IMG/VR virus record: IMGVR_UViG_3300045988_105900
Source of the DNA: a virus
Strand: one strand, 5' to 3'
Length of the DNA: 33,704 bases
Numbering within the stretch: position 1 is the first letter of the stretch; every line of letters begins with the position of its first letter. Position numbers and translations under genes: made by a program. This document shows, in pieces, positions 179 through 32,365 of the stretch. The notes below the pieces were generated by a model that was not told where the DNA came from, made no database searches, and worked only from the letters and a program-made list of their open reading frames with translations.

Positions 179-280
179 TCGTACGGAAACCAACGATTTC
201 CGACACGCTGTAGGAGAAGTCTCGTAGCGAGTGTGCTAGGATTGAACCTGTTGAAAACAACTATACCACAGGAGAAGACC

Positions 281-2536
281 ATGCGCCACACCTTCCACAA
301 GCCGCAAGACCCGCCCGCGCTCGACATCAAACCCTACAGGAACATTCCCAACGGCCTCGCACGCGAAGTCAACGGCCTCACCATGGCCGTCCAGACCAGC
401 GAATACACGTTCACCGACGCACGACTCCAAACCGTCGCCATGCCCGTCATGGACGGCACCGGCAAGCCACGCTGGGACAACGCCTACTACGACGCCTTCT
501 GGTCACTCAGAAACGGCGACCTGCGCCTCAGCGAAGACGGCGACACCATGTACGCCCGCGACACCGACTGGCTCGGCGGAGACATGCCAAACACATGGCA
601 TTCAATCAGCAGCCTAGCCGAAGAGTTCGGCTTCCCCACCGGCAGCCACGCCATCCGCAACCTCGAACCCATGTTCAAGGCCGAAATGCTCAAACTTCCG
701 CGCATTGCACGCGGAATACTGTTTGGCCACACCGCCTTCCACCCGCAAGGCAAACACACAGTCGTGGTCGAAGAAGCCGCCGAAAACGACGTATACCTGT
801 ACGTGGACAACAGCCCATGGCTGCACGACAGCAAGAAAACCGCCAAACTCGTTGAACAGGCCAACAAGTTCATCGCCCAACTCACCGCAGACGATGCGAG
901 CCGCGAAAACCTCCTCCGCATGTTCGCAACCCCATTCCTCGAACCGCACAAGCATCTCTTCTACGTGTTCTACGGACACGGCGGCGACGGCAAAAGCTTC
1001 CTCCTCGGACGCTTAGGCGACGAATACCCAGACAAGGCCAGCGGCATCGGCATCAAAGCCCTCAACTCGTCAAGCGTGTTCGAAAGCGGCAATGAAGCGT
1101 TGAAACTCGACGGACGCTACTGGGTATACGACGAAGAAGGCGACATGCTCACCGACAAGGACATGGGCATCATCAAACGCATCGCCACCGGCGACACCAT
1201 CCACGCCCGCGGAGTAGGCCGCAACAGCGTCAACGTGCGCTCGAAGGCCACCCTCATCATCGCAAGCAACCATCCGCTCGCCACCAGCAACGGCGACGCC
1301 AACATGCGCCGCCTCGTGCCCGTCATGTTCGCCGGACGCAAGACCCCGCAGCAGATGCAGCCGCTCGCCGACTTCATCGACCAGTACGGCATGACCCCAT
1401 TCATGCTCGCGAGCGCCATCCTCTGGGCCGACAAGCCGTTGGACGATGACATCCACCGCGACATCAGCTTCAACGACAGTGAACAGGAGTTGGACGAACG
1501 CGCCATGTGGATTGTCAACGAAATCTGCGAAAACGGATACGCCGACACGCGCCTCTGCCCATACGTCGGCCACGTCAGCGGCGACACGTACAAGATGCTC
1601 GGCATCGGACTGCGTAGCAAACGCATCGACGGCAAGGTATGCTCCGTCCGCACCGTCATCGACGAAGACCGTTTCGCACCATACCGTGAACGCTACGAAC
1701 AGGAGCTTGAGGTAAGCCAACTTCCACTGCTCGAAGACCTGCCTGTACCAGAAATGCAGACCGACATGGAACGGCGCGTCACCGAATACGGTGAAATGGT
1801 TGACGTCAAAGCGCCCGAAGGCTTCAAACTCCACAGGGAGCCGACCGACCCGGCCAATCCGAAAGCCATCCGCAACTGGAAGAACGGCAGGCAGGAAGAC
1901 ATCGTGGAAATCGGCCAAGGAGACGTATACGCCGTCATCCCACAGCCCGGCCACATCATCATCGACATGGACGCGCCCAAGGACGAGCACGGCCGCCACG
2001 GATACGACATCCTCCGTCCCATGCTCGCCCCGACCCTCATGGTGCACACGCCGACCCACGGCGGCATCCACGCCTACTACAGGCTCCCGGAAGGATGGAC
2101 CGGCAAGCTCAAGAACACCAACCATGCTGACGGAATCCCCGTGGATGTGAAGGTGGACGGGCGCGGCTACGTGCTCGGAGCCGGTTCCAACATCGACGGC
2201 ATCGGCTTCTACCGGCTCGTAGGAGACGAACTCGACGTGCAGGAAGCACCGCTCGCACTCCTCAACTGGCTCGTCGAACATGGATACGGCGTCAAACCAA
2301 TTCCGAAGCCGACCGCAGTCAACGAGAGCGCGCCGCGCAACGGAAGGCCAGACCTCACGCCAGTGCCAGAAGGACGCCGCAACGACACGCTATACCGCTG
2401 GGTTTGGGGACGCCTCCACAACCATGAGGACAACGAAACCAACATCCACGACGAACTCAGGCTCCGCGGACACGTCAGCGGGCTTGGAGACGCGGAAATC
2501 GAACGCATCTGGCAGAGCGTGAAGGAAACCGCATGA
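281..2536 (+). CDS. Replicative SF3 (D5/P4-type) helicase fused to a C-terminal AEP primase-polymerase and a PriCT-like tail
   Basis: AGGAG at 270-274 lies 6 nt before ATG 281 (the track ORF starts at GTG 233). Helicase motifs: Walker A YGHGGDGKSFLL (nt ~974-997), Walker B VYDEEGD, IIASNH. AEP motifs: IIIDMDAP (nt ~1955-1978), HGGIHAYYRLP, VDVKVDGRGYVLGAGS. C-terminal RNDTLYRWVWGRL...DAEIERIWQSV. Confidence 0.85.
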   Translation: MRHTFHKPQDPPALDIKPYRNIPNGLAREVNGLTMAVQTSEYTFTDARLQTVAMPVMDGTGKPRWDNAYYDAFWSLRNGDLRLSEDGDTMYARDTDWLGGDMPNTWHSISSLAEEFGFPTGSHAIRNLEPMFKAEMLKLPRIARGILFGHTAFHPQGKHTVVVEEAAENDVYLYVDNSPWLHDSKKTAKLVEQANKFIAQLTADDASRENLLRMFATPFLEPHKHLFYVFYGHGGDGKSFLLGRLGDEYPDKASGIGIKALNSSSVFESGNEALKLDGRYWVYDEEGDMLTDKDMGIIKRIATGDTIHARGVGRNSVNVRSKATLIIASNHPLATSNGDANMRRLVPVMFAGRKTPQQMQPLADFIDQYGMTPFMLASAILWADKPLDDDIHRDISFNDSEQELDERAMWIVNEICENGYADTRLCPYVGHVSGDTYKMLGIGLRSKRIDGKVCSVRTVIDEDRFAPYRERYEQELEVSQLPLLEDLPVPEMQTDMERRVTEYGEMVDVKAPEGFKLHREPTDPANPKAIRNWKNGRQEDIVEIGQGDVYAVIPQPGHIIIDMDAPKDEHGRHGYDILRPMLAPTLMVHTPTHGGIHAYYRLPEGWTGKLKNTNHADGIPVDVKVDGRGYVLGAGSNIDGIGFYRLVGDELDVQEAPLALLNWLVEHGYGVKPIPKPTAVNESAPRNGRPDLTPVPEGRRNDTLYRWVWGRLHNHEDNETNIHDELRLRGHVSGLGDAEIERIWQSVKETA

Positions 2537-20930: not shown

Positions 20931-21856
20931 TGAGGATTGTGGATATCAGCAATTGGAAGGCCGATTGCGACGTTTCCAAGATTGACGCCGATGGCGTCGT
21001 TGTCCAGTGCACTTGGGGTGCAGGCGAGTTAACGACTGACAATGGTCTGGTTGATTCCGTGTGGGTTGGTGCCGATGCGAAGATTCAGGCAGCAGCCGCA
21101 CGCGGCCTTGCGGTCGGATACATGCACTACATTCGCGGCGTGAACGCTTCGGAGGAGGCGTATTTCTTCGCCGAAGCCACCAAGGGTTATTTGGGCAAGT
21201 ATGTGCCGTGTGTTGACTGGGAGAGCGACGATAACGCCGCTTGGGGCAATCGGGCCTATCTTGACGAATTCCTCTACCAGTACATCCGGTTGACAGGCGT
21301 GAAGCCGCTCGTGTATGCGCAGCGTTCCGAAATCCCGTTCATCAAGGATATTTGCGCCAAGCATGATTGCGGCATTTGGGAGGCTTGCTATGCTTCCATG
21401 GATGCGACCGGCTGGCAGGATGCGGATTCGATTTGGTCGTATGTGGCATATCCGATGCGCCAGTACACTTCGAACGGCCATATTGGTGGCTATGCCGGTT
21501 CGCTTGACTTGAACTATTTCGCCGGCGATAATGCCGCTTGGGATAAGTATGCTGGCGTTGGTGCGAATACTCCGGCGAATCCGGCTCCGATGCCGGTGGT
21601 TGACCCGTCTCCAACCGTGATTGCAACCTCGTATGAGGTTTCGGTCGATTCGCTGAACGTGCGTACCGAACCGTCCGTGAAGGGCGAGGTTGTCGCCAAT
21701 TACGTGCGCGGCCAGAAGGTTGTGTTGGATGGTTGGGGCGCTTATGCTGACGGTTTCCTGTGGGGCCGTTATATTGGCGCTTCTTCCGGCGAGCCGAGGT
21801 ATGTTGCCATCGGCACCGATTCCGGCAATGACTGGTATTTGACAATGTGCCGTTAG
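20930..21856 (+). CDS. Endolysin: GH25-type muramidase with a C-terminal SH3b-like wall-binding domain
   Basis: TAATG coupling. MRIVDISNWKADCDVSKIDADGVVVQCTWG...GYMHYIRG...VDWESD is GH25-like. C-terminal YEVSVDSLNVRTEPSVKGEVVANYVRGQKVVLDGW is SH3-like. Confidence 0.8.
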   Translation: MRIVDISNWKADCDVSKIDADGVVVQCTWGAGELTTDNGLVDSVWVGADAKIQAAAARGLAVGYMHYIRGVNASEEAYFFAEATKGYLGKYVPCVDWESDDNAAWGNRAYLDEFLYQYIRLTGVKPLVYAQRSEIPFIKDICAKHDCGIWEACYASMDATGWQDADSIWSYVAYPMRQYTSNGHIGGYAGSLDLNYFAGDNAAWDKYAGVGANTPANPAPMPVVDPSPTVIATSYEVSVDSLNVRTEPSVKGEVVANYVRGQKVVLDGWGAYADGFLWGRYIGASSGEPRYVAIGTDSGNDWYLTMCR

Positions 21857-21872
21857 CCTGATATAATGATGA

Positions 21873-21950
21873 CTGTTGGAAGTTTTTTCCAACAGCCCTC
21901 CTTTGGTTTCTCCATAGCCCCCGCAATGTTCATGCGGGGGCTTTCTCTTT
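21873..21950. terminator. Convergent terminator region (two hairpins)
   Basis: ctgttggaa/ttccaacag stem at 21873-21894. agcccccgca/tgcgggggct stem at 21916-21942, followed by ttctctttt on the + strand. Confidence 0.65.
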
Positions 21951-29027: not shown

Positions 29028-29528
29028 TCATACGTTCCAAAACATGTTGGAAACCCATACACCGCGTGCGTATTCAACCGGCGTACCCTCAAGCCACTTG
29101 AGGCAACCGTGGGGGGTAATAAGCGCCACTAGCCCCTGACCATCGAACACGTGATTGTGGTATCCGCCGTCAACCCACGCCTGAACCATGTTGCGAGAGT
29201 CTGAAGCATACGGCCCGTTCTCATACTTATATGCGATTCCATTATGCGCGATATACCCCCTATCGGTGCGGAACGGATGACAGTTGCGCGGCTCGACTGC
29301 CCCATGCGTGGCGAGACGGAAGTGAATCAGGCACGGGGCGTTCCTGAGCTGCTCCCAATGACTGAAGATGAATCCGACAACCTTCAGCGGGTCAATGTTT
29401 TTGAACACCCTCAGACGTTCTCCATCCCACCAGCTAACACCTCCACCGTCCGGATTCGACTCACTCATAGCGAGAATGTCGCACGGTTCCGGCATTGCGC
29501 CGGGTACTGCGGTTACGATAACACACAT
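29028..29528 (-). CDS. Class-II (Ntn, Cys2) glutamine amidotransferase-like thiol enzyme
   Basis: Starts MCVIV (nucleophile Cys after Met). LIHFRLATHG, NCHPF, IAHNG and SDSRN match YafJ/GATase_4-type class-II amidotransferase blocks. Confidence 0.8.
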   Translation of the reverse strand: MCVIVTAVPGAMPEPCDILAMSESNPDGGGVSWWDGERLRVFKNIDPLKVVGFIFSHWEQLRNAPCLIHFRLATHGAVEPRNCHPFRTDRGYIAHNGIAYKYENGPYASDSRNMVQAWVDGGYHNHVFDGQGLVALITPHGCLKWLEGTPVEYARGVWVSNMFWNV

Positions 29529-29550
29529 TGTTTTCCTCTTTTCTAACGGT

Positions 29551-29573
29551 GGGGGCGGGACGCTCCCGCCCCC
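29551..29573. other. 10-bp perfect GC hairpin between the amidoligase and GATase genes
   Basis: gggggcggga cgc tcccgccccc. No U tract on the coding (-) strand, so it is more likely an RNA-stability or processing element than a terminator. Confidence 0.5.
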
Positions 29574-29585
29574 GACAATTGGTTG

Positions 29586-31193
29586 TCAAGCGTTGTCCTC
29601 GGCGATATTCTTCCTGATTCGAGCATACCGGGCGCACAGTTCGGGACGCCCAGCACGCTTGTACAAGCGCAGTGCCGTACGTTCCAACGACTCCACGGTT
29701 GGCTTGCCATGGGAAGCTCGCGCCTTGCGACTGTACAAGATGTTTTCGAGCACCCGTTGCGCGTCAATGCGGCTGCGACGGTAATAGTCGCATCCGTCCC
29801 ATATCACCTCGCCGCCGGCTGCATGGTAGATGCGGAAGTAGCTGAGGCTACGACACGACTCGCCATGGTCCACAATCATCTTCGTAGCGCACTTAAGATA
29901 GATGTGCAGCGGTTGCAGATTGCGTGACGGAAAAGCGTAGGGGTGTGCGGTGCCGGATAGTCTTTCGTCAATGCCGTTGCGGCGGATTATTCGGCGATTC
30001 TGATTATCACACCATGCCTGACGTGCGCGGCGCGTGTCACCGTGGCTTGCGCGTGCGCGACGTGAAGCCCTGATGTTGGTTTCGACATTGCGGCGAACCT
30101 CCTTTGCGCGTTCCTTGCGCTCCAGCTCCTCTTTCGCATTTCGCATGGCTGCTGCGCGGTGTGCCGCGTCGAGACGTTCCTTAATGGTGAGGCGTGGCGT
30201 GTCGGCCACGCTATCGGCCATGCATGAGGCGTATCGCTCGATAACGCCCTCCTTGACCGTGCCGAGGGGGTGCTTTTCAAAAAACCGCCACATGGCGCGC
30301 GCCCACTTGACCGCCGGCTCAAGCTTGTCGGCACTGCCCGCATACCAGCAGTCAAACGTACGCAGCTCGATAGTGTCGGCGTGTTCGTCATTCACTGCCG
30401 TATGCTTGCCGGTGTACTCTCCATGATTGAGCTCGCACCAGTAATCATCGGACAAGTGGCGCATGTTGAGTCGCTCGCATTGCGTTCCGTCCAGTCCGCG
30501 CAACGCCCAATACCAGCGGCTTGCGCACTGGTTGGGGGTGCGTGCAACGTGGATGTGGCCGCCCGCGTTTTCGCCATAGTCGGGGATGCGTTCGACTAGT
30601 TTCACCAAGGCTGGAAGTTTGGACATGTCGAGAATATTGGTTTGCAATTCGACGCCACCAGCCTCCAATGACGGGTCACTGTCCCAGCCGGCAATGAGAC
30701 TCGATTCGGTGACGGCAGCCACGAAGTCGGTGTAGAGCTCGGATTCCATTTCGACTTCCACCCCGAACGTGAACTGCTTGCCGTTTCTGAAGGTGTACGG
30801 GTAGGTGTACTCGGTTTCCTTGGAGGCTAGGAGCGCCCCGTTGCCACGGTGACGCGGACAGCAGCAACCACCGTCCGAACTTCCCTCGCATCCCTCGCAG
30901 AGGATTGCGTCGCAATCGTAGGCCTTGCAATTATAGTAGGCGCTACTTGGGTCTAGTGGCGTTCCGCACTGCGCGCACCATGCTGTTTCGTCTTCAAAAT
31001 CCGTGTCATCGTAGACTCGGCGCATTTCGGAATCTGGCGTGCGGACGTAGAATTCGTCGCCGATTGCGACGCATTCTGCGGTGCCTTCCGGCCACCGGTT
31101 GCAGTATGTCCGGAAGAGATACTGTGGTATGCCGCTGCGGTCTATCCATTCGGCATACGGTTCACCTCCGAGGATTGCGATTCTTTCAGCCAT
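29586..31193 (-). CDS. Amidoligase_2 (glutamine-synthetase-like COOH-NH2 ligase) with an N-terminal Cys-rich module and an Arg-rich C-terminal extension
   Basis: AAGGAG RBS before ATG 31193 (the track GTG 31202 lies inside the RBS). FGVEVEME, WDSDPSLEAGGVELQT and NAGGHIHV are the three amidoligase blocks. The N-terminus has CAQCG...CEGCEGSSDGGCCCPRH. The C-terminus holds a repeat, SRRARASHG / SRKARASHG. Confidence 0.8.
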   Translation of the reverse strand: MAERIAILGGEPYAEWIDRSGIPQYLFRTYCNRWPEGTAECVAIGDEFYVRTPDSEMRRVYDDTDFEDETAWCAQCGTPLDPSSAYYNCKAYDCDAILCEGCEGSSDGGCCCPRHRGNGALLASKETEYTYPYTFRNGKQFTFGVEVEMESELYTDFVAAVTESSLIAGWDSDPSLEAGGVELQTNILDMSKLPALVKLVERIPDYGENAGGHIHVARTPNQCASRWYWALRGLDGTQCERLNMRHLSDDYWCELNHGEYTGKHTAVNDEHADTIELRTFDCWYAGSADKLEPAVKWARAMWRFFEKHPLGTVKEGVIERYASCMADSVADTPRLTIKERLDAAHRAAAMRNAKEELERKERAKEVRRNVETNIRASRRARASHGDTRRARQAWCDNQNRRIIRRNGIDERLSGTAHPYAFPSRNLQPLHIYLKCATKMIVDHGESCRSLSYFRIYHAAGGEVIWDGCDYYRRSRIDAQRVLENILYSRKARASHGKPTVESLERTALRLYKRAGRPELCARYARIRKNIAEDNA

Positions 31194-31261
31194 TGCTATC
31201 ACTCCTTAATAGATGGCTTTTTTTTCGTGCCCTTGCGGGACTTGCACCCGCATGTATGCTG

Positions 31262-31489
31262 TCAGGGCTGGACGGTCAGGACGTCGATGATGTGTAGCGT
31301 TTCGGGGTCCGTTGCGTCTTTTGCTGTTATCGCTGTGACTGTTGGCGTTTTGATGTGGACGCCATAGTCGGCGAGTGGTACCCATCGTACGGTGATACCC
31401 CCTTTGATTGCCTTTATGCTGCCGTTTGGTTTGCGGGTGATGTTGTATCCGCGCTCCTTCATGTTGCTGATGAATGTTTGCCGTTGCAT
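31262..31489 (-). CDS. Hypothetical 75-aa protein (weak HicA/YcfA-like look)
   Basis: GAGGAGG RBS. It is the first gene after promoter P3. FISNMKERGYNITRKPNGSIKAIKGGITV vaguely resembles the HicA fold pattern but lacks the catalytic His context. Confidence 0.5.
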   Translation of the reverse strand: MQRQTFISNMKERGYNITRKPNGSIKAIKGGITVRWVPLADYGVHIKTPTVTAITAKDATDPETLHIIDVLTVQP

Positions 31490-31517: not shown

Positions 31518-31558
31518 AATATATCATTTTAGTATTCTGTTGTCAACCCCGGCGTGTC
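31518..31558 (-). promoter_or_regulatory. Leftward promoter P3: GACACGCC-N4-TTGACA-N17-TATATT
   Basis: On the + strand: aatata at 31518-31523, tgtcaa at 31541-31546, ggcgtgtc at 31551-31558. Confidence 0.75.
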
Positions 31559-32325: not shown

Positions 32326-32365
32326 AATATACCGGATATGACGTCGTGTGTCAAGTCGGCGTGTC
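32326..32365 (-). promoter_or_regulatory. Leftward promoter P1: GACACGCC-N3-TTGACA-N17-TATATT
   Basis: On the + strand: aatata at 32326-32331, tgtcaa at 32349-32354, ggcgtgtc at 32358-32365. Confidence 0.75.

Follow-up and report, generated by a model that had tools for sequence, protein, structure and literature searches.

The 33,704-nt virus record IMGVR_UViG_3300045988_105900 (hereafter the window), which represents essentially an entire phage genome of ~33.7 kb, carries on its minus strand two adjacent genes: one (29586–31193) encodes a 535-residue protein with a predicted glutamine synthetase (GS)-like ligase core, and the other (29028–29528) a 166-residue amidohydrolase that resembles class-II glutamine amidotransferases (GATases), enzymes of the N-terminal-nucleophile (Ntn) type with an N-terminal cysteine. 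The pair is tightly linked and conserved, retains intact catalytic signatures and is limited to DNA elements that invade a single bacterial genus, Bifidobacterium. As an overall interpretation that we favour only tentatively, the two proteins may form an amide-bond ligation and hydrolysis module used for host takeover or counter-defence.

Four independent lines of remote evidence assign the ligase core (residues ~131–345) to the GS-like amidoligase superfamily. An AlphaFold model of residues 60–345 built on a diverse alignment has a predicted local distance difference test (pLDDT) score of 86.7 and a predicted template modelling (pTM) score of 0.81, and its top 50 fold matches in the PDB comprise only glutamine synthetases and YbdK (1r8g), with E-values down to 1e-4 and probabilities of 0.9–1.0. 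Among the predicted viral structures of BFVD there are 46 matches at E ≤ 1e-3, more than 25 of which, the majority of those with a name, are called 'Amidoligase enzyme'; mycobacteriophage Tesla gp108 is also among them, as is a 'LIM domain containing protein', an example from elsewhere of the zinc-finger and amidoligase architecture that the initial annotation had pointed out. A profile of the family aligns with Tesla gp108 in hhalign at 96.4% probability (E 1e-9), and the 166 aligned columns take in all four motifs described below. Finally, a search with the family profile through 1.84 billion representatives reached the distant proteins P0325 (E 1.2e-6) and P0330 (E 9e-6), which score 22.8 and 35.9 bits, respectively, against Pfam model PF12224 (Amidoligase_2) and thus both pass its gathering score of 22 bits. 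Since the same search yielded only 135 ligase relatives, the family is small and isolated; a further homologue search with a diverse profile filled up with close relatives and contributed no new information.

Of 28 family members, PF12224 itself matches only the 3 most distant. Tesla gp108 and the product of the following gene, gp109, both fall just under their Pfam cut-offs (20.4 against 22 bits and 19 against 23 bits), while gp18 of phage LUZ24 passes PF12224 with 24.0 bits, unlike the ligase studied here, which has no match. The ligase motifs align with those of both gp108 and gp18; however, the hhalign comparison with gp18 reached a probability of only 45%, is unconvincing by itself and was set aside as evidence for the placement. 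The 'Amidoligase_2 blocks' and the GS-like central domain put forward by the initial annotation therefore hold in part: the peptides are present, and the domain is supported by structure, profile comparison and transitive hidden Markov model (HMM) matching, but the direct Pfam test is negative and the PF12224 model recognises none of the blocks. Taken together, the comparisons identify the protein as a probable cytoplasmic GS-like carboxylate-amine ligase from a highly divergent branch of the Amidoligase_2 superfamily.

The open reading frame (ORF) of the ligase extends from 29586 to 31202 (minus strand) if a GTG start is used, giving 538 residues; its homologues start at the ATG at 31193, which gives the 535-residue protein (stop codon 29586–29588) and a shared N-terminus of the form MA[ED]RIAI. 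A database entry derived from a 33,703-bp contig shares 100% identity with this protein, for which more than 450 homologue clusters were found. Its core (residues 131–345; 30159–30803) carries the motifs GxExE, DxS..GxE, GGHxH..R and GK..AxN..TxExRxF. The peptides FGVEVEME (residues 143–150), WDSDPSLEAGGVELQT (170–185) and NAGGHIHV (209–216), which the initial annotation had singled out, were all recovered; it had missed a fourth conserved block, GK..AVN......TIELRTF (262–280). Among relatives of 20–45% identity, G144, E146, E148, S175, E182, G211, H213, H215 and R278 are invariant, and conservation is 90% or higher at D173, G212, R218, K263, N268, T274, E276 and F280. These residues make up the metal- and phosphate-binding pattern expected of a GS-like fold, from which we infer an active ATP-dependent ligase.

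Upstream of the core lies a Cys/His-rich module (residues 71–130; 30804–30983) with the putative zinc ligands C73, C76, C89, C94, C99, C102, C112 and H115, which includes the previously noted peptides CAQCG (73–77) and CEGCEGSSDGGCCCPRH (99–115). The phage clade keeps the eight Cys/His residues between positions 73 and 115 without exception, CxxC pairs in variable number occur throughout the family, and the arrangement fits a binuclear zinc module; Pfam matches to this region (C1_2, Rhodanese_C, B-box and DZR) are all weak. Residues 1–70 (30984–31193) form an acidic, phage-specific domain, for which neither fold nor family searches gave a match; cellular homologues align only from residue ~73 and therefore do without it. 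The phage protein ends in an Arg-rich helical tail (residues 346–535; 29589–30158) with an isoelectric point of 10.5 and 34 arginines among its 190 residues, which is missing from the cellular copies. The repeats SRRARASHG (377–385) and SRKARASHG (488–496) that had been pointed out in the tail are present and extend further, as RRNVETNIRASRRARASHG and QRVLENILYSRKARASHG; they define a motif, N-[IV]-x-x-S-R-[RK]-A-R-A-S-H-G, whose two copies (30039–30065 and 29706–29732) both recur in phage homologues of 529–599 residues and ~35% identity. Matches restricted to the C-terminal region were considered as an independent domain family and rejected, as they are frameshifted or chimeric fragments of the ligase gene. 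A first, full-length AlphaFold run on 33 close homologues was poor (pLDDT 57) and of no use for the tail, although the N-terminal domain reached a pLDDT of 76–92 in it; a fold search with this model found no match for either region. The presence of a zinc module and of a basic tail peculiar to the phages suggests that the target is a macromolecule.

The partner protein matches Pfam GATase_4 (PF13230) with 31.5 bits against a cut-off of 23 (E 1.1e-7), and most of its relatives carry a precomputed PF13230 assignment. Its best NCBIfam matches are EgtC, GlmS and PurF, all far under the equivalog cut-offs (27.6 bits against 218.65 for EgtC, the top match), and its best sequence match in the PDB is 3mdn, a class-II GATase domain protein; among named proteins, those closest to it are thus stand-alone GATase_4 members of the EgtC type. 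The MC start and the peptides HFRLATHG (69–76), NCHPF (82–86) and HNG (95–97), on which its initial assignment to the class-II Ntn amidotransferases was based, are in place, and with a GATase_4 score above cut-off and conserved catalytic residues this assignment stands. M1-C2, R71, T74, H75, G76, N82, H95-N96-G97 and D110 are invariant or nearly so in relatives of at least 36% identity; among 20 diverse relatives R71, T74, H75, G76, H95 and G97 remain invariant, and M1, C2, N96 and D110 are kept in at least 90%. The motifs align with HTRWATHG and HNGI of GlmS/GFAT, where we take the counterpart of C2 to be the nucleophile, N96-G97 to form the oxyanion hole, and R71 and D110 to hold the alpha-carboxylate and alpha-amino groups of glutamine. 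Because these GlmS-type catalytic and substrate-binding residues are kept, the partner is most likely catalytically active, hydrolysing either glutamine or a gamma-glutamyl amide.

Partner homologues of 45–56% identity, 198–218 residues long and with an extra acidic C-terminus, are found in Bifidobacterium contigs of metagenomic or genomic origin (B. saguini, B. tissieri, B. margollesii, B. vansinderenii, B. asteroides, B. callimiconis and one uncultured bin). Directly upstream of each lies a cellular ligase of 329–359 residues with 39–46% identity to residues 73–345 of the phage protein. In all 45 of the close loci examined, phage and cellular, of which 33 are IMG/VR phage contigs, the amidohydrolase gene comes directly after that of the ligase. 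In several cellular loci the GATase match starts at the end of the ligase or at most ~20 nt from it, and in locus L002 the two genes share one nucleotide. The same order recurs in a 38-kb phage (L048), whose ligase is 30–38% identical and which shares ERF/VRR-NUC/SNF2 synteny, in Tesla (L051) and in L055, a bona fide Amidoligase_2 locus belonging to the relative P0330. The amidoligase and GATase-like neighbourhood cited at the outset is thus borne out by a GATase_4 gene directly downstream in all of these loci; the Pfam description reportedly names a GATase-like thiol peptidase or an AIG2/GGACT cyclotransferase as conserved neighbours of Amidoligase_2.

Since the cellular copies hold just the zinc module, the ligase and the amidohydrolase, these three parts constitute the core module, to which phage lineages add the acidic N-terminal domain (residues 1–70) and the basic tail (residues 346–535). 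The cellular contigs carry genes for TrwC relaxase, ArdA, Fic, Abi_2 and integrase, which suggests that the cellular copies lie in integrative or conjugative elements; a search of PLSDB plasmids gave no match. The neighbourhoods of the cellular pairs contain no nucleotide-metabolism genes. Most cellular copies (L002–L013 and L044) have upstream of them a divergent gene for an Xre-like helix-turn-helix protein of ~154 residues (for example L003, 3151–3615, minus strand), in place of which L005 and L044 encode a related protein of 268 residues; no homologue of this regulator was found in the phage. Within L055 (1729–2136, 2936–5536 and 7195–7464), a GGACT cyclotransferase-like gene precedes the ligase/GATase_4 pair, and 2.7 kb beyond the pair comes a gene of the Acb2/Tad1-hairpin type, whose family is known for its role in anti-defence.

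Selection on the pair was estimated from 26 intact ligase and 29 intact partner genes as median ratios of nonsynonymous to synonymous substitution rates (dN/dS), at a dS of ~1. The values are 0.22 for the ligase overall, 0.22 for its N-terminal domain, 0.29 for the zinc module, 0.14 for the core, 0.32 for the Arg-rich tail and 0.10 for the partner, so that every part of the pair is under purifying selection in metagenomic phages. Cultured relatives present a different picture: in eight of eight the ligase is inactivated, through three independent lesions, while the partner gene is intact. Five BP677P genomes share a 2-nt insertion at residue ~254 (BP677P3, L001 21398; window ~30430); in BA720P3 and BA746P1 the TGG codon of the invariant W302 has become TGA (L049 3511–3513 in BA720P3; window 30288–30290); and BP742P1 has lost residues ~61–380 through an internal deletion of ~1 kb (L052 2459–2931; window ~30054–31013). 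The ligase is intact in 25 of 33 metagenomic contigs, the rest having assorted deletions and frameshifts. In L038 a deletion joins ligase residue 332 to partner residue 114, L040 and L043 have ligase frameshifts and L042 partner frameshifts, and in L046 nearly all of the ligase is deleted and the partner intact. If about one quarter of wild genomes are defective, we roughly estimate the chance of three independent defective isolates out of three at ~1–2%.

Dispensability had been named beforehand as an outcome that would speak against the proposal, and it is half borne out: all eight cultured relatives grow with an inactivated ligase, so that the pair serves an accessory rather than an essential function. 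In the simplest reading, the ligase is accessory and is selected against, or at any rate unneeded, during enrichment on laboratory strains; its inactivation in cultured phages argues against an essential role in replication or DNA modification, and the pattern of loss is in keeping with a part in conflict or takeover whose value varies with the host.

In the phage genome, the two genes belong to a block of minus-strand ORFs running from ~32.3 kb down to 22.1 kb, which also encodes an ERF recombinase, an Enc34-type single-stranded-DNA-binding protein, VRR-NUC, an SNF2 helicase, DUF6378, a deoxycytidine triphosphate (dCTP) deaminase and a MazG-like nucleoside triphosphate (NTP) pyrophosphohydrolase, together with a weak YqaJ match; the region of interest is 82% identical to Bifidobacterium phages BP677P1–P8, whose host is B. 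pseudocatenulatum. A consensus scan placed minus-strand promoter-like sites at 32354–32326, 32028–32000 and 31546–31518. The one nearest to the pair (31518–31546; TTGACA-17-TGnTATATT, 11 of 12 matches with an extended -10 element, as a pattern match only) is followed by a 75-residue ORF (31262–31489) and then by the ligase gene. At this level of consensus patterns, the sites upstream are consistent with the proposed location of the pair in an early operon; a transcription unit shared with the MazG-like gene is likewise compatible with the scan, which found no terminator-like minus-strand site before that gene and no more promoter-like or terminator-like sites on the minus strand between 29.1 and 21.8 kb. 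The convergent junction is closed by a terminator-like hairpin at 21916–21942, which the scan placed on the plus strand.

The two genes lie side by side on the minus strand as initially described, and the GC hairpin reported between them was located at 29551–29573. It consists of a 10-bp stem and a 3-nt loop, GGGGGCGGGA-GCG-TCCCGCCCCC, with no T-run (U-tract) after it. The stem is 98% paired across 28 related phages, nine of which share one compensatory change from a G-C to a U-A pair. In the distant phage L045 the equivalent spot is taken by an unrelated hairpin, and no comparable hairpin precedes the partner gene in the cellular copies, where the genes abut or overlap. These comparisons mark the hairpin as a real, phage-specific element, which may act as a processing or stability signal, or as an attenuator without a U-tract that sets the ratio of the two proteins.

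In the mechanism that we tentatively prefer, the ligase would use ATP to form an acyl-phosphate and would then create an amide or isopeptide linkage, most likely a gamma-glutamyl one. The partner would hydrolyse a gamma-glutamyl amide, so as to remove or trim the adduct in the manner of EgtC, or would free ammonia from glutamine for use by the ligase. In the phage form, the acidic N-terminal domain and the Arg-rich tail with its duplicated SR(R/K)ARASHG motif would steer the enzyme to a macromolecule, putatively a nucleic acid or an acidic protein. The module would thereby provide an accessory early function in host takeover or counter-defence that is useful in nature and dispensable or costly in laboratory hosts. 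Such a role in conflict is in line with the early promoter-like sites, the mobile-element-like neighbours in Bifidobacterium, the Acb2/Tad1-like gene in L055 and the contrast between three ligase lesions in eight of eight cultured relatives and intact genes in 25 of 33 metagenomic contigs. A more specific version, which we consider unlikely as it stands, is a possibly reversible tagging system of invading DNA (phages and mobile elements) in Bifidobacterium, one that would place an amide adduct, gamma-glutamyl or other, on a host immunity or housekeeping factor; alternatively the tag might go to nucleic acid by way of the Arg-rich tail, with the Ntn hydrolase tuning or removing it. Were this so, some hosts would sense the activity or pay a cost for it, and this would account for the independent ligase knockouts in every cultured phage.

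A number of observations weigh against an amide ligation and hydrolysis module acting in takeover or counter-defence. The 535-residue ligase and three cellular homologues have no PF12224 match at E ≤ 1, and comparison of the ligase with Pfam, NCBIfam, PHROGs and the PDB, by phmmer and by profile, gave only weak Cys-rich matches; Foldseek TM-scores to solved GS and YbdK structures are only 0.3–0.4. A complete four-layer Ntn domain typically has ~200–270 residues; the partner has only 166, and its GATase_4 match covers profile positions 29–114 of 272. Two further distant ligase homologues lack an amidohydrolase neighbour. Abi_2, a defence gene, is among the cellular neighbours, so that the neighbourhood by itself cannot tell anti-defence from defence, and the PADLOC-DB 2.0 HMMs matched neither the phage nor the cellular proteins of the pair. 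Searches of the literature gave no activity, substrate or target for phage pairs of the superfamily, and the paper on anti-defence genes in leading regions does not mention amidoligase or GATase families.

The most serious rival, rather less probable in our judgement, is a two-subunit glutamine-dependent amidotransferase in which the Ntn subunit supplies ammonia and the ligase amidates an ATP-activated carboxylate, for instance of a cell-wall precursor, of a protein Glu, Asp or C-terminus, or of a metabolite, by a logic like that of MurT/GatD and asparagine synthetase. The partner retains the GlmS-type residues R71 and D110 that bind free glutamine, as well as the catalytic cysteine and the oxyanion hole; GS itself attacks an acyl-phosphate with ammonia; and strict adjacency, with abutting or overlapping genes in cells, would suit a stoichiometric complex. 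The spacing of the cellular genes and the glutamine-binding residues thus fit an amidation complex equally well. To our knowledge, however, a class-II GATase that provides ammonia nearly always forms one polypeptide with the synthase domain that it serves, and EgtC, the partner's top NCBIfam match, is the only characterised stand-alone GATase_4 enzyme that we know of; it is a gamma-glutamyl amide hydrolase, in a pathway with the GS-fold ligase EgtA. The GGACT gene of the Amidoligase_2/GATase_4 locus L055 likewise points to gamma-glutamyl adduct chemistry. It is because of this EgtC precedent, the fusion rule and the cyclotransferase-like genes in related loci that we prefer a gamma-glutamyl ligase acting with a hydrolase.

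Could the pair instead serve as an exclusion or defence module of mobile elements, modifying a host component such as an envelope precursor or an essential factor in order to shut out superinfecting phages or competing elements, and not to counter host immunity? The amidoligase and GATase genes of phiEco32 have been suggested, from comparative genomics, to modify the cell wall and prevent superinfection, as cited in PMC10580990; the cellular copies lie beside an Abi_2 gene and a divergent Xre-like regulator, and loss in pure-culture enrichment is what one would expect of a function that is useless without competitors. We nevertheless regard this as unlikely, given the absence of a PADLOC match and the seemingly cytoplasmic nature of both proteins, in which reading of the sequences, with no predictor run, revealed neither a signal peptide nor a transmembrane segment. 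No integrase gene was found in the phage, its plus-strand genes not having been scanned for one, and the phage-specific basic tail and the zinc module point to an intracellular macromolecular target. A link to base or nucleotide modification, raised in the initial annotation, is more improbable still: here the pair would place an amino-acid-derived or amide group on a base, in concert with the dCTP deaminase and NTP pyrophosphatase-like genes and by means of a DNA-binding tail. The tail is indeed basic, the dCTP deaminase, MazG-like and DUF6378 genes belong to the same minus-strand block, and in viral metagenomes thymidine-hypermodification clusters are accompanied by genes for amidoligases and amidotransferases (PMC8989533). 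Yet the nucleotide genes sit 6–7 kb from the pair, the cellular copies have neither such genes nearby nor a basic tail, and eight of eight cultured relatives replicate with a dead ligase. Moreover, Pfam and PHROG searches of the minus-strand early genes, the structural-gene half not being scanned protein by protein, found no dUMP hydroxymethylase, thymidylate-synthase homologue, 5-hydroxymethyldeoxyuridine (5-hmdU) DNA kinase, aGPT-Pplase or TET/JBP protein; with these 5-hmdU pathway genes missing from the early genes scanned, thymidine hypermodification is unsupported. Least of all do we credit the idea of a decaying or functionless remnant that is turning into a pseudogene everywhere. The lesions in all eight cultured genomes and in contigs L038, L040, L042, L043 and L046 would agree with it, but it is contradicted by purifying selection (dN/dS of 0.10–0.32 in all parts), by full-length genes in 25 of 33 viral contigs and in hundreds of protein clusters, and by the invariance of the motif residues expected to be catalytic in relatives of only 20–45% identity.

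Elsewhere in the window, a plus-strand sigma-70-like promoter with 12 of 12 matches and an extended -10 element (21839–21867) overlaps the end of the GH25 lysin gene and is followed by a hairpin (21875–21893) and by the strong terminator at 21916–21942. This element (21839–21950) could encode a small transcript of ~75 nt; it is 90% identical in BP677P3, compared with 82% for the ligase region, and a search of the window against Rfam matched no family there or anywhere else. AT skew flips with the coding strand, from about +0.3 to +0.4 at 1–7 kb, where genes are on the plus strand, to about -0.3 at 22–32 kb, where they are on the minus strand, so that the coding strand is markedly richer in A than in T. 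A 767-residue ORF (233–2536, plus strand) has DUF5906 (residues 246–360) N-terminal to Prim-Pol (residues 541–673), the opposite of the order that we would have assumed; the same listing order is seen in the related phage contig L048.

Amidoligase/class-II GATase pairs in phage early regions are already known, from comparative genomics since 2009, and this is not an undescribed kind of system as first proposed but a variant: such pairs have been described, and are annotated as a matter of routine, in the LUZ24 group, phiEco32, Marvin and OM43 phages. Early clusters of the LUZ24-like/phiEco32 type, with COOH-NH2_lig, Amidoligase_2, class-II GATase, ATP-grasp and GGACT/AIG2 genes, were reportedly set out by Iyer, Abhiman, Burroughs and Aravind in Mol Biosyst in 2009. 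Like the pair studied here, they combine a GS-like amidoligase with a class-II GATase-like protein in an early region, and the GxExE, DgS..E and H.H motifs of the LUZ24 ligase align with those of our ligase. The LUZ24 GATase, however, is a 510-residue GATase_6/7 protein, whereas the partner here is a 166-residue GATase_4 protein, and the ATP-grasp, COOH-NH2_lig and cyclotransferase genes of the LUZ24 cluster are absent here. The actinobacteriophage Tesla, of the Marvin-like cluster S, has the same adjacent order of ligase (gp108, 453 residues) and GATase (gp109, 299 residues). Its gp109 is 30% identical to our partner and nearly twice as long, the hhalign match of gp108 covers the catalytic core only (residues 75–273), without zinc module or tail, and the Tesla pair lies at the right genome end rather than upstream of recombination genes. 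Tesla gp108 (L051 1058–2419) is annotated as a 'glutamine amidotransferase domain protein' although it is an amidoligase, probably through carry-over of the name across Marvin-like phages; the possibility of a ligase–GATase fusion that this name raises was rejected, as the 453-residue protein is the ligase and the true GATase, gp109, is encoded by the separate gene that follows.

Characterised enzymes offer partial parallels. In EgtA/EgtC of ergothioneine synthesis and PuuA/PuuD of putrescine catabolism, a gamma-glutamyl amide is formed by an ATP-dependent ligase of the GS/GCS2 fold, and the glutamyl group is later taken off by a GATase-like Cys hydrolase. Pfam places EgtC, like our partner, in GATase_4, but the sequences give no sign of orthology (27.6 against 218.65 bits); furthermore, both systems are chromosomal metabolic pathways with additional enzymes, unlike the present pair, which occurs only in phages and mobile-element-like regions and comes with a zinc module and a basic tail. 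MurT is a Mur ligase, GatD a class-I triad GATase, and asparagine synthetase B relies for activation on a PP-loop domain that adenylates the substrate, so that these folds differ from the GS fold of our ligase and the class-II fold of its partner. What they share with an amidation complex is the principle of a glutaminase that feeds ammonia to an adjacent or fused ATP-dependent, carboxylate-activating enzyme (PMC3267633 and PMC5871853).

New here are a clade that the Pfam, NCBIfam and PHROG models tried all miss, a minimal partner of 166 residues, the zinc and Arg-rich additions, the sharing of the pair between Bifidobacterium phages and mobile-element-like chromosomal regions, and the recurrent loss of the ligase in culture. 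A sizeable clade of the amidoligase superfamily is thus invisible to current models of these three collections. Phage amidoligase/GATase pairs occur widely, and the prediction that they carry out peptide or amide modifications dates from 2009; the literature searched names no substrate for them. As a compact, two-gene version, the Bifidobacterium clade offers a tractable entry to this old question: its phage and cellular forms differ only by targeting-like additions, and natural ligase knockouts in all cultured isolates exist beside intact metagenomic alleles, both of which provide a handle on function.

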